DNA of 64,000 nt, from contig NW_013657635.1 of assembly GCF_000142905.1 (NCBI RefSeq), positions 62,001 through 126,000 of the forward strand, given 5' to 3'. Shown piece after piece: positions 1,661 to 6,666 of this stretch (the first letter of the stretch is position 1; each line of letters opens with the position of its first letter). The position numbers and the translations under genes are program-made. Below the pieces are notes generated by a model. It was not told the DNA's origin and did no database searches. It worked only from the letters and a program-made list of their open reading frames with translations. Source of the stretch: Thecamonas trahens ATCC 50062 (Eukaryota; Protista; Apusomonadida).

Positions 1661-3130
1661 TATCGCGAGGAGTAGACCCGGGTGGTGGTGCCCGGCGCGA
1701 GCGACGACCGCGAGAACTTGAGCAGAATCGACTCGAGCTTGGTCCCCTCGGGCGTGATCGGCTGGAGGTACGGCTCGAGCTGGGCACGAGTCCAGTGCTG
1801 CTGGGCGGTAAAGAGAGCATCGAACCGCGGCAGCGCCGCCTCGGGCAGGGTGTGCTCTTCAAACAGCCGGATCCGCGAGTTGCCTGCCGGCTTCAGCGCG
1901 TTTGTCATCGACACCGCCTCGCCGGGGCGGTCACCACCGCCGTGCCGTACAGCGTGGCGAGGTCGACCGCAGCATGAAAGTCGACCGGCACCGTGCTACG
2001 CCATGCCGCGAGAAACTCGGAGAGGACCCAGTCCGAGGTCGCCAGCCGCAGCAGCTCCACGCCCTTGAATCGCGCCACCTTGCCCGCCGACAACACTAGC
2101 GACCCGTCATCGCGCTCATCGGTAAAGAGAAGACAAACGTGCTCGAGCGCAACCGGGTTGTACTCGGGTGCCGCAGCAAGGACGGTTCGGATGTCCAGCG
2201 GGTCGATGGTGAGCTCGGTGCCCAGCTCGTCGGCCACCGTGATAACCAGGTCGAGGAGGGTGGCGGTGTACTCGGGCGCAAGCGTTCGCCACTTGCCGTC
2301 CATCTCAACAGCGCCAAGCTCCGCGAGAGCCACAAACAGCTCGGCCTCGGAAGCTTGCACAGCATCGAGGAGCTGTTCGGTGGAGAAGAGAGCGTCGACG
2401 TCGCCGATGCCGCCGCTGCCGGCGGTCGCCTCTTCCAGCTCGGCGCCTGCGTACGCCGCAGCCTTGAGCAGCTCCCTCAGTCGGCGGGTCTTGGGCGTTG
2501 TTCTTGTCAGTTCGTAGTACTCGAACAGCGTGTTGGTGATGTACCGCGCCAATCGCGCATCGCCATCGTTGCCGACGTCTTCGCCAACCGCCTCCACCTC
2601 GCCTTCGGGGAGGAGCTCGCTCCCGGCCTCGGGCACGATCAGCATCGAGTTGGTCGTCTCGGCAATGCGGACAGAGTACGACTCGCTCTCAGTCGTCAGA
2701 ACGACATGATCAGACTCGTTGCCCACAAAGGTGAGCCTTTGATCATTCCAATGGTGTGTGTTGCGTAAGGATTCTACCGGGTGAGTGGCGGAAAAGGGCG
2801 TGAACATGGGGAGGCTTCGGGGAGAGGGGCTCCCAGACGAGCAGCGTGACGGAAAGAGAGAACAAAACAAGAGACAGATGTGGACATAGTAGTATATGAG
2901 GTGCAGGTGTGGGTGGCGAGGTAAAAATATGTAATGGCTGTGGGTGGGGAGAGGAAACAGGCGAGAGCGGGCAGCAAAAGGTCGTCAAAGGAAAACACGA
3001 CATTGGCGACGTACTTGGTCTCCTCCCTCAGCACAGCCTCTAGCAACTCTTCTGGAAGCTGCATGAGATGGATACCCTCCATACTTGCCCTCCCATACAA
3101 CGAAGAGTACGTCAGGTCCACACACGACAT
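1657..3130 (-). CDS. DCC1: Sister chromatid cohesion protein DCC1 (intron 2737-3014; one-base frameshift near 1925)
   Basis: Exon 1 LMQLPEELLEAVL splices via GTACGT...AAG to KLTFVGNESDHVVLTT. Contains ETTNSMLIV and LLDAVQASEAEL. C-terminal RFDALF..W....LEPYL lies in the adjacent frame (1657-1914). Confidence 0.85.
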
Positions 3131-3505
3131 GTCGAGCTTCTAAGTAGAGTGGTGTGCCGCTGTTGCTACCGAGAGCCGCTGCCGCTGCCGAGAGCCCCAC
3201 GCCGTGCGCCGTGGCCTCGGCTGGCTACAGAGCTGCCAATCACTTGCGCTCGTCGACCGACACTTGGGCCGGACAAGACGAAGGCGAACTGCAGCGTCTC
3301 CTTACTTTAGCGAGCCACCTACTTTAGCGAGCCACCGAGGAGAGTGGAGGAGGAGGATGGTGTGTATAAGCCGCGGACAAGTTTGCGTCATCATGGTCGT
3401 CGGCAACCGTCTCTGAGGCCGAGGCGGTCGCGGAGAAGATCGGGGCGGGGAGCTGGCCTCGACTGGGCTGAGGAGATGAGGCCCAGAGGAGGCGTGGTGG
3501 TGGGC

Positions 3506-4992
3506 ATGGCTGATGGCATCTTTGAACGCATGCAGCAGATTCTGCGGAAGAGAGCGGCGGCTGGTGATGGCCCTACTGTCGTGGCAGGGGCTGGGGCTGG
3601 GGCAGCTGGGGCTGGACTCGGGACTGATCGTCAGGCTGTCGTGGCAGGAGCTGAGGCTGGGGCTGAGGCTGGAGCTGGGGCAGCTGGGGCTGGACTCGGG
3701 ACTGATCGTCAGGCTGTCGTGGCAGGAGCTGAGGCAGGGGCTGAGGCTGGGGCTGGGACAGCTGGGGCTGGACCCGGGACTGATCGTCAGGCTGTCGTGG
3801 CAGGAGCTGAGGCAGGGGCTGAGGCTGGGGCTGGGACAGCTGGGGCTGGACCCGGGACTGATCGTCAGGCTGTCGTGGCAGAGGCTGGGGCTGAGGCTGG
3901 GGCTGGGACAGCTGGGGCTGGACCCGGGACTGATCGTCAGGCTGTCGTGGCAGGAGCTGAGGCTGGGGCTGAGGCTGGGGCTGGACCCGGGACTGATCGT
4001 CAGGCTGTCGTGGCAGGGCTGAGGCCGATCCTAGTGAGGCTGTGTCTGCGGCTACGGCTGGGGCTAACCCTGGTCACCCCGCCCAAACAGAGACTGGCAC
4101 GACTGGGGCTGCCAAGCGCCGCCGCACGGCAGACAACGATGACAAGTCAGCTCCACGGCGCAAGAAGCCTGTGCCGCTGCGTTCCAAGATCTCCACATCG
4201 AACGGCAAGCGGGTGATCACTTTAGGCGAGGGCGGGCTGTGGGGTGCTCTTGCCCGCGAAGACCGTGCCGACGAACGAGCCGCCAAGCAGGCGCTTGCTT
4301 CGGTCTTCCCGGACCTCTCACCGTTTGAGCTCGCCGAGATTGCTCGCTTTGCCACCAACATGTCTACATCCTCCGCTCCGCCGCCGACCGACGACGCCAT
4401 CGACGCCCGGCTCCGCGCCCTCCGCCGCGCCGAGCCGGCCGTTCGCAAGCGCGAGAACCACAAGTGGCGGACTGTCCGTGGCCGCTTCCAGTCGCGCATT
4501 CCCAGGACGGCCCGGAATCCGGACGGCTTTCTCCCACCAAGCGCGTGGAAGGCCTTTATCGGCATCGCCGCCCAGTACGAGGCTCAGTTCTTCGACTTTT
4601 TCACCTCCAAGTTTACCTGCCGTGGCTCGTTCTTTGCCCCCGGCGCGCCGTGCCCGGCCAACGCCGCAGTCGACTTTCTCTACGCCACGCCGGCCCAGCG
4701 CGCGTCGTTCACGCTCGACCATACCGTCGAAGTCCACCTGATCCTCAAGCACTGGCGCCATCGCGTCGAGGCCGAGGCTTGGCTCGATCTTCCGCCGCGC
4801 CACCGCGACTGGGACATGCGCTTCTATGCCTTTCTCCTCCTTGGCCTCCGCCCTCAGTCGTTTGCGGGCGTTACCTACGAGCCCAACCTCGTCGGCCGCT
4901 GCTCGTTTTGCGACTCGACAAAGGCCCACGGCCTGCTACTCCCGCCGTTCCCACCGCTCCCATCGCTCCATCCGCAAGATCCGTCGCTTTGA
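3506..4992 (+). CDS. Repeat-containing protein with C-terminal DFF40/CAD-like (beta-beta-alpha-Me/HNH) nuclease domain; frameshift near 4017
   Basis: Gly/Ala repeat ORF joins ORF 4042-4992 if one G is added at 4016-4018. C-terminus reads FTCRGSF...PC...TLDHTVE...FYAFLL...NLVGRCSFCDSTKAH. Start codon uncertain (3476 or 3506). Confidence 0.55.
3575..4025 (+). repeat. Coding tandem repeat, ~78-bp unit, ~6 copies (GTDRQAVVAGAEAGAEAGAGTAGAGP)
   Basis: GGGACTGATCGTCAGGCTGTCGTGGCAG recurs directly in the sequence. Confidence 0.95.
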
Positions 4993-5068: not shown

Positions 5069-6244
5069 TTACGCAGCCACGTCACCGGCCCACACGTCCG
5101 ACTCAATGCCGCACTCGTTCGAGCCACGCTTGATCTTGAACATGCCCTGCAGGTCCGACGAGGCACCCGACGGCCACGACGTGCCCCACGAGTTCTGGAT
5201 GAGCCAGTACGGGACGCCGTTCTCCTCACCAAAGCCGATAGCCATCACTGCGTGCCCGCCAAGCATCGAACCAGTCTTGTGCTGGTACACGCCGCCGGTG
5301 TAGTGCATAAAGTCCTCGTACACCTTGAACGCAACCTGGACCGGGCCGTTGTTGACAATCTCCTCCGCGATAGCGTCGTCGCGCCCAAAGAGCTCGTTGA
5401 TGTGACGCGCATGAACAGCCTTGACCCGCTTGATGGGCGAGCCGTCAGCGCAGTGCGACGGGCAAGAGCCGGTCGTCCCGTTGCCCGACGTGTACGGGAG
5501 GCACTCCCACGACGTCACGCCCTGCTTCTCCACGAAGCTCCACGCCCGGTTGAGGATCCCACCCTGGCATCCGTAGTTGGTGTAGTCGCATGAGACCAGG
5601 TCCTGAGGCGAGAGCACCTCATCCTTGAGGCCCTGGATGCACATCCGGTTCTGTCCTCGCAACAATCGTCGTATGAGAGCGTGGTGAGTGGCGCTACGCA
5701 GGGGGGGGGGGGGAGGGGGGAGTTGGAAGCGGGGCGCGGAAAAAAAGGCAAGTGCCTTGTCACGGTACTTACCGTCATGACCTCGGTGAGCGAGAACGCC
5801 CAGCACGAGCCGCACTGCGCCTGGTTGAGGACCGGGTGCATGCACTTGGGCCACTTCTTGCGAGCGTCAAACGAGGTCGGGAGCTTGGCCTTGCGCGCCG
5901 CAGCCTTCTGCGCCATTGCAGCAGCTGCGTCGGGGCCGATCATGGAGAGCGGCTCGGGCGTAAACTCCGAGACACCGAGGAGGCCCTTGACCTCATCGAT
6001 CGTCTTGCCCTCGAAGAACGAGTTGACACCGGCCGTCCACGTCGACGCAGGGTCGTTGTTCACTGCCGAAATAATGTCCTGCTCACCGAAACGCGCCTCT
6101 TGTCGTCTGTGAGTCTCGCTCGCTCCCCGCCCCATCTACCAACTCTTGCGCGTCTTGCTGCCAACGTACATGGTTGATCGCAGACCGCGATGCGAGCGTC
6201 GCAGTGGCAAGCAAGGCCAGCAGAACCAAAACCTTGAGCTCCAT
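5069..6244 (-). CDS. Cathepsin B-like papain-family cysteine protease (introns 6079-6169 and 5651-5772)
   Basis: Signal peptide MELKVLVLLALL, LPTSFDARKKWP, QAQCGSCWAF, GGHAV, YWLIQNSWG. Both GT-AG introns restore the frame. Confidence 0.93.
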
Positions 6245-6666
6245 CACTGAGGTGTGGAGTACTTGAGTGTATTGACGACGGAAGAGGCTCAATTGTGCTT
6301 CAATATCGCCGGCTTTTTGTGGCGAACGGACATGACAAAGTCACGCGACGATGTTTTCATTGGCAACACCACCGGCAAGTCACACGCAGTCCCGCCCACA
6401 GCCTTGTACAAGGCTTCTCCGCGCTGACAGGGCATCTAGGATGTATTCCGCGTGGCATCGGAATAGCAAGCAGTTGCCCGCACCCATCTCGCGCCACACA
6501 GCTGCTTGCGCTTCCTTTGCAAGCATTGATCATGGAGTACACGTTGTGGCGCACGGTCAACGTGGCGCAGAAAATTGGCTGGCGGGCGCGGCCCATGTGA
6601 CCCGGGCAGAGAGGGTTGGTGAGAGCACGTGACAAGGGTACCGGTGGTTTATCGTGGGACAAAACC

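Follow-up and report, generated by a model that had tools for sequence, protein, structure and literature searches.

The gene at 3476-4992 on the forward strand of the window (the whole 64,000-nt stretch analysed here of DNA from Thecamonas trahens, a unicellular relative of animals) encodes a genuine homologue, outside animals, of the catalytic domain of the apoptotic DNase CAD (DFF40/DFFB); in terms of regulation the protein does not qualify as an orthologue of CAD. We regard the homology of the two domains as very probable. None of the scores is decisive by itself; the sequence profile, Pfam and the fold nevertheless agree on CAD. What is new here is the occurrence of the CAD catalytic domain outside animals, together with its unreported fusion to MutS in chlorarachniophyte algae: the literature searched, which lacks most subscription papers, holds no description of the Thecamonas CAD-like family or of the MutS fusion. 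Family terms are also absent from the available supplement text of PMC5714182 and PMC3482391, whose fuller listings may bear on novelty, and the accessible portions of PMC13522737 and PMC13408182 hold nothing further on the CAD-like family. Homologues of the whole CAD catalytic domain, now known from one apusomonad, one metamonad and two rhizarians, make the origin of CAD testable by tree. The features of the Thecamonas gene are as follows.

3476..4992, + strand: whole gene, probably one exon (database model AMSG_09103 = P0002, 475 aa), from the ORF with the base missing after 4015 counted
3589..3984, + strand: 78-bp tandem repeat, 5.2 copies, encoding a 26-residue Gly/Ala-rich unit with no Pfam family (repeat finding, Pfam)
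4016..4018, + strand: GGG in the window and GGGG in independent contigs, likely an assembly error that splits the ORF (X1, X3, X5, X13 loose end)
4034..4092, + strand: 59-nt GT..AG "intron" of the database model, bridging the frame error, probably spurious (variants silent in the continuous frame)
4111..4170, + strand: two basic clusters, putatively NLS-like (sequence)
4255..4386, + strand: small helical unit, conserved in the family, with a VFPxL motif at 4303 (alignment, predicted model)
4399..4944, + strand: CAD/DFF40-like catalytic domain, model residues 67-248 aligned to 1v0d residues 130-318 (profile, model, Foldseek, VIA-align)
4618..4653, + strand: zinc-knuckle Cys pair (4618, 4651), equivalents of mouse CAD Cys229 and Cys238 (profile alignment)
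4717..4731, + strand: D-H-x-x-E, equivalents of Asp262, His263 and Glu266 (profile alignment; PMC5714182, PMC3482391)
4885..4929, + strand: Asn299 equivalent (4885), CxxC (4900, 4909), Asp (4912) and His313 equivalent (4927) (profile alignment)

Taken alone, the window protein has no Pfam match, nor does any PDB sequence come up at E<=10; the word-index protein search returns 0 of 597 candidates, NCBIfam and the feature-based search of the ESM Atlas return nothing, and a structure search with a model of pLDDT 0.39 stays at TM<=0.32. Since a single sequence fails to reach Pfam DFF40 (PF09230, gathering cut-off 25 bits), the link to CAD needs the family profile together with the fold. Family profiles built on shallow alignments (10-13 rows) and compared with 177,635 PDB sequences place mouse CAD (1v0d) first in all three alignments, with E values of 0.026, 1.4e-4 and 0.036 against 0.079, 0.17 and 0.67 for the respective runners-up. 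The Pfam comparison suggested in the first-pass annotation gives a divided answer: DFF40 is the sole family matched by P0011 (one of 12 proteins, E 0.0045) and by P0029 (one of 4 proteins, E 0.0071), both below the cut-off with best scores among the relatives of 17.2 and 16.5 bits, while the window protein itself has no match. HNH families of Pfam are matched neither by the window protein nor by any relative.

The fold agrees with the profiles. An AlphaFold2 model covering 4201-4944 (pLDDT 86, from a 12-row alignment) finds 1v0d, a structure older than AlphaFold's training, as the top Foldseek match (E 7.9e-3, prob 0.99, TM 0.41; next E 3.4), with no match at E<=0.001. In VIA-align, 1v0d is the only one of 48,161 chains at Z>=5 (Z 10.1, rmsd 3.6, 153 residues; next 4.5), with model residues 67-248 lying on 1v0d residues 130-318 at an identity of 12%. 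The model of the Amorphochlora domain behaves similarly (Z 10.2, rmsd 4.5, 156 residues; next 3.6), but it is not a fully independent check because its alignment is shared with the Thecamonas model; the best non-CAD His-Me structure is PacI with a Z of 2.9 (Amorphochlora model). The annotation had recognised a CAD-like nuclease from the sequence and named a best match to generic HNH families, or to none, as the outcome that would speak against it. Instead CAD comes first by profiles, Foldseek and VIA-align, and the comparison of an AlphaFold model with CAD by Foldseek bears the proposal out.

The sequence motifs on which that proposal was based (FTCRGSF at 4612-4632, PGAPC at 4639-4653, FTLDHTVE at 4708-4731, WDMRFYAFLL at 4810-4839 and NLVGRCSFCDSTKAH at 4885-4929) are all found in frame 4042-4992 (+), at 4612-4929. 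Their alignment with named CAD residues also holds, as the family profile places them on mouse CAD, and the motifs are more than chance since the same positions are conserved across distant relatives. In the numbering of the profile alignment, the Thecamonas protein keeps counterparts of mouse CAD Cys229, Cys238, Asp262, His263, Glu266, Asn299, Cys307 and His313; His242 has no counterpart, the first Cys of the CxxC (4900) replaces His304, and the position of His308, the His after the last Cys, is held by Asp (4912), these last two changes being as the annotation stated. Conservation in the 13 aligned rows is 12 for Cys229, 9 for Cys238, 12 each for Asp262 and His263, 11 each for Glu266, Asn299 and Cys307, and 9 for His313 (replaced by Arg in 3), with Cys at the 304 position in 12 and Asp at the 308 position in 11; one of these rows, P0010, is an N-terminal exon only and lacks most sites, and another, P0008, seems to run into an intron at its end. 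Further likenesses to CAD are the fold over residues 130-318 (PDB 1v0d, PF09230; PMC5714182 group 35) and the helical insertion between the finger strands, which is also present in the Thecamonas domain. The differences, apart from the residues named, are the low identity, a score under the Pfam cut-off, the absence of CIDE-N, the unicellular hosts and a long Gly/Ala repeat arm. We do not class the protein as a member of CAD, because it falls short on the Pfam cut-off, on His308 and on CIDE-N.

The zinc site of CAD, which we take to be Cys229, Cys238, His242 and Cys307, thus has its three Cys retained and its His missing, with a new Cys at 304. The extra Cys could supply the lost zinc ligand; zinc may then be bound by four Cys, and the metal ion by a pair of Asp. 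His242 mutants of CAD are without DNase activity (PMC2172457). In the rules given for His-Me fingers, the His that ends strand 1 is the general base, while the preceding residue and a helix residue, His or Asn across the superfamily, bind the metal (PMC5714182); loss of the catalytic His is the mark of inactive groups (PMC5714182 section 12). The Thecamonas protein retains the catalytic His (the His263 equivalent, 4720) and has Asp in the helix, and by these rules its general base is intact and its helix ligand atypical. It also bears DHxxE on an HNH/EndoVII fold, the signature of the HNH-CIDE clade.

Outside the catalytic core there is little resemblance to CAD. CIDE-N has no Pfam match on either window reading frame or on P0002, in agreement with the annotation, and the Thecamonas N-terminus consists of the tandem repeat in its place. 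The copy number and length of this 78-bp coding repeat (3589-3984) vary between runs. The NLS-like stretch reported by the annotation is present in frame as two basic clusters, AKRRR at 4111-4125 and PRRKKP at 4153-4170, and the stand-alone relatives P0003, P0004 and P0010 likewise begin with a long low-complexity stretch that includes basic clusters. The helical unit at 4255-4386 sits where CAD has a linking segment between CIDE-N and its catalytic domain, and shows no significant match to that segment; an alignment of the family's N-terminal helices with CAD residues 98-166 is weak and not significant (score -2.6).

The database model AMSG_09103 is a real gene, and the window as given breaks its frame. 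The Gly/Ala repeats sit in ORF 3476-4216, and the catalytic domain in the different frame 4042-4992 (+), where the first ATG comes no earlier than 4360. One extra G after 4015 is seen in the contigs of three of four runs (X1, X3 and X5; that of X16 is short of the site) and as a loose end in X13 (one of four runs, the others being without coverage there), and the G run at 4016-4018 is likely a one-base assembly error. With this base both frames merge into a single ORF 3476-4992 (+) of 505 codons, or 495 counted from the second ATG at 3506. The one-exon ORF is graded as likely and not certain because the contigs that carry the extra G are shallow (depth <6) and start only ~20 letters upstream of 4015. 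The ORF start at 4042 given in the annotation is to be revised, and its N-terminal Gly/Ala repeats do form part of the joined protein, although they lie in another frame of the window as given. The 59-nt intron of the database model (4034-4092) is probably spurious and masks the assembly error, since the two single-letter variants inside it are both silent third positions in the continuous frame. Over 4016-4992 there are 8 single-letter variants, 6 of them silent and the other 2 outside the domain. The GC3 of the domain is 0.81, compared with 0.75-0.85 in 6 neighbouring genes. A single 190-nt contig at 4648-4837 in 1 RNA run is a weak sign of expression of the nuclease gene, as it may be DNA.

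An exhaustive phmmer search among 1.84 billion proteins gives 12 matches at E<=0.001, one of which is the gene's own model and 11 of which are non-self relatives. Anaeramoeba flamelloides and Bigelowiella natans are the named sources among them, and one other match is a EukProt model; searching with the Bigelowiella domain brought in a further cluster, which contains Amorphochlora amoebiformis. Every relative with a name is thus a eukaryote. P0010 and P0012 appear to be two exons of a single gene, united in P0029, and this gene is therefore probably eukaryotic as well. Word- or pattern-limited searches of viral contigs, phages, plasmids and GTDB genomes confirmed no prokaryotic or viral relative, which owing to that limitation does not show absence; the best match among BFVD folds has an E of 0.81 and confirms no viral relative, and the metagenome scans confirmed no locus of relatives. 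No PHROG or PADLOC family matches the window protein, and the only PADLOC match under E 0.001 among 8 proteins falls outside the domain. Within the 64-kb window the nuclease gene has no paralogue.

A tree of 12 of the 13 rows (omitting P0010, which is an N-terminal exon of the gene that P0029 completes), built on the alignment columns occupied by the window protein, separates only two clades and is mute on the direction of transfer because it includes no animal or bacterial sequence. One supported clade (99/99) comprises P0005, P0007, P0009, P0023 and P0024. P0006, P0008 and P0011 form a supported subclade, whose members have two adjacent Cys at the first zinc position and carry Arg in place of His313. 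The most divergent relative, P0013 (E 5e-4), has His right behind the last Cys, as in CAD, and an insertion within the CxxC, and may bridge to further families.

In three chlorarachniophyte proteins, P0007 of Bigelowiella and P0024 and P0023 of the Amorphochlora cluster, MutS_I and MutS_V are followed by the CAD-like domain in one chain. P0023 is a 1913-aa ORF on a 6533-nt JGI contig and falls in the same 90% cluster as P0024. GIY-YIG has no Pfam match in any of the three, and P0005 carries a weak MutS_V tail (E 0.015) ahead of its CAD-like domain. The fusion is known here from protein records and is provisional, because the transcriptome record P0028 and other fragments of the same gene carry the domain without MutS. 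P0007 begins with a hydrophobic stretch, a putative targeting signal. The MutS part of the fused proteins, domain I included, presumably resembles plant-type MSH1, and the fusions are possibly plant-type MSH1 with a swapped nuclease. They share MutS I and V, a linker and a C-terminal nuclease domain with plant-type MSH1, and differ in that the C-terminal domain is CAD-like, without detectable GIY-YIG; the Thecamonas protein has no MutS at all. HNH domains are carried by mtMutS/MutS7. In plant MSH1 the recognition of a mismatch is linked to DNA cleavage, for which the C-terminal nuclease is responsible (bioRxiv 10.64898/2026.06.11.731605). Surveys of MSH1, in the text available, cover stramenopiles, alveolates, haptophytes and cryptomonads with Rhizaria unmentioned, and chose matches that extend through GIY-YIG (bioRxiv 2020.02.13.947598; PMC12292046); according to the accessible part of the latter, all known plant-type MSH1 have GIY-YIG (PMC12292046). 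The fusion points to an undescribed design of mismatch sensor plus nuclease in algal genome maintenance.

The simplest reading of these arrangements is that the CAD-like domain is a portable DNA-cutting module. With moderate confidence, we propose that the Thecamonas protein is a zinc-stabilised His-Me finger DNA endonuclease that would help to maintain or process the cell's own DNA inside the nucleus. The four Cys (4618, 4651, 4900 and 4909) would bind Zn, Asp 4717 and Asp 4912 would hold one divalent ion, and His 4720 would activate the water that cleaves the backbone, while the basic clusters would carry the protein to the nucleus. Without CIDE-N, control would come from the attached part, which would be the MutS mismatch sensor in the algae and the conserved helical unit plus the long low-complexity arm in the stand-alone forms. 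The Thecamonas domain is probably catalytically active. For a maintenance or processing role as opposed to death or conflict we see roughly even chances; the protein is without the CAD regulatory domain and the same domain is fused to a mismatch-repair protein in algae, and DNA maintenance therefore seems a likelier role than cell death, though for the stand-alone Thecamonas protein this is an extrapolation from fused relatives of a separate clade. A caspase-gated apoptotic executioner is likely not the role to be expected, and the label "apoptotic" used in the annotation finds no support.

A related possibility is that the protein is a functional forerunner of CAD, a cell-death or antiviral suicide DNase gated not by ICAD but by a metacaspase cut in the N-terminal arm or by some other inhibitor. 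In its favour are the match over the entire CAD catalytic domain, the NLS-like clusters, a patchy spread over distant eukaryotes that is typical of conflict genes, and the fact that the related bacterial HNH-CIDE clade consists of toxins (PMC3482391). We consider it unlikely: CIDE-N is absent, MutS is the sole informative domain partner found, the gene is single-copy within the 64-kb window, and the window protein falls in none of the PADLOC/PHROG families. The conflict or selfish nuclease that the first-pass annotation left as an option finds no support in the housekeeping neighbours and host-like codon use; a selfish element is unlikely, since the only repeat is the coding one, GC3 is host-like and the neighbours are housekeeping genes. 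Another reading, which we regard as quite unlikely, is that of a DNA-binding or structural protein on the CAD fold with little or no nuclease activity, in which the Asp at 308 (11 of 13 rows) and the lost His242 mark a change of function. The Arg at His313 in 3 of 13 rows would fit it as well, and a non-specific DNase without a guard would be toxic. However, 12 of 13 rows keep the general-base His and the Asp before it, Asp binds Mg well, the extra Cys could replace the lost zinc ligand, and the most divergent P0013 has the His directly after the last Cys.

The question of ancestry overlaps these functional readings. It seems rather unlikely that the family is a separate His-Me finger lineage, derived for example from bacterial HNH-CIDE toxins or SphI-like restriction enzymes, that has no special eukaryotic ancestry with CAD and resembles it only because CAD is the clade's sole solved structure. 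While DHxxE defines the entire HNH-CIDE clade, bacteria included (PMC3482391), and the DFF40 scores lie under the cut-off, the match covers CAD residues 130-318, far beyond the finger, every named relative is eukaryotic, phages, plasmids, viral contigs and GTDB genomes gave no relative at the sensitivity used, and no other His-Me structure comes above Z 2.9 (PacI). Tox-HNH-CIDE toxins and SphI (PMC3482391; PMC5714182 group 28), compared here by description only, likewise have DHxxE and no CIDE-N; the Thecamonas family differs by its eukaryotic hosts and by being without secretion domains or an immunity gene. No secretion or immunity domain of a polymorphic-toxin context occurs in 12 proteins, and the neighbours in the window are housekeeping.

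In published accounts CAD is restricted to metazoans and descends from a bacterial toxin that was transferred to them close to the base of their lineage (PMC3482391, PMC3417536), a bacterial origin repeated in PMC8195603; the CAD group in the available text of PMC5714182 counts 399 eukaryotic and 0 bacterial sequences, and CIDE-N has been traced from cnidarians to mammals (PMC2426694). A protist CAD orthologue has been claimed before, in the "gCAD" of Giardia (PMC11991804). That claim differs from ours in resting on antibody cross-reaction and 22-24% identity, with CIDE-N claimed and no DNase assay in the accessible text, and its authors themselves note structural differences (PMC11991804). 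Our phmmer search with the Thecamonas protein (1.84 billion proteins, E<=0.001) gives no Giardia-named match. Tentatively, we suggest that the CAD nuclease domain predates animals as a eukaryotic genome-maintenance endonuclease, to which animals added CIDE-N to make an apoptotic DNase; on the same tentative footing, the domain would still be stand-alone in apusomonads and metamonads and would sit on an organellar MSH1 in chlorarachniophytes in place of GIY-YIG. If true, this pre-animal origin would supersede the published scenario, in which early animals received a bacterial toxin directly. A version free of CIDE-N and ICAD would also allow the enzyme to be studied in the absence of its chaperone-inhibitor, and it bears on the non-lethal roles of CAD.

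By Pfam, the neighbours of the nuclease gene are a WD40 protein, Dcc1, a papain-family protease, an M28 peptidase and PhoD. Just upstream of Dcc1 lies a 118-codon ORF at 2774-3130 (-), with a stretch that presumably resembles an F-box; it probably represents the initial exon of a gene whose transcription runs away from that of the nuclease. The upstream non-coding region at 3150-3340 differs from run to run: X1 and X5 have only one copy of the 17 bp that are duplicated in tandem at 3303-3336, and the X5 contig also contains a 30-letter insertion near 3266 and several small indels. On the other side, the papain-family (cathepsin B-like) protease gene, which has introns, occupies 5069-6250 (-) and ends ~80 bases past the stop codon of the nuclease gene; within its last ORF, related contigs diverge at an unusual stretch near 5150-5185.
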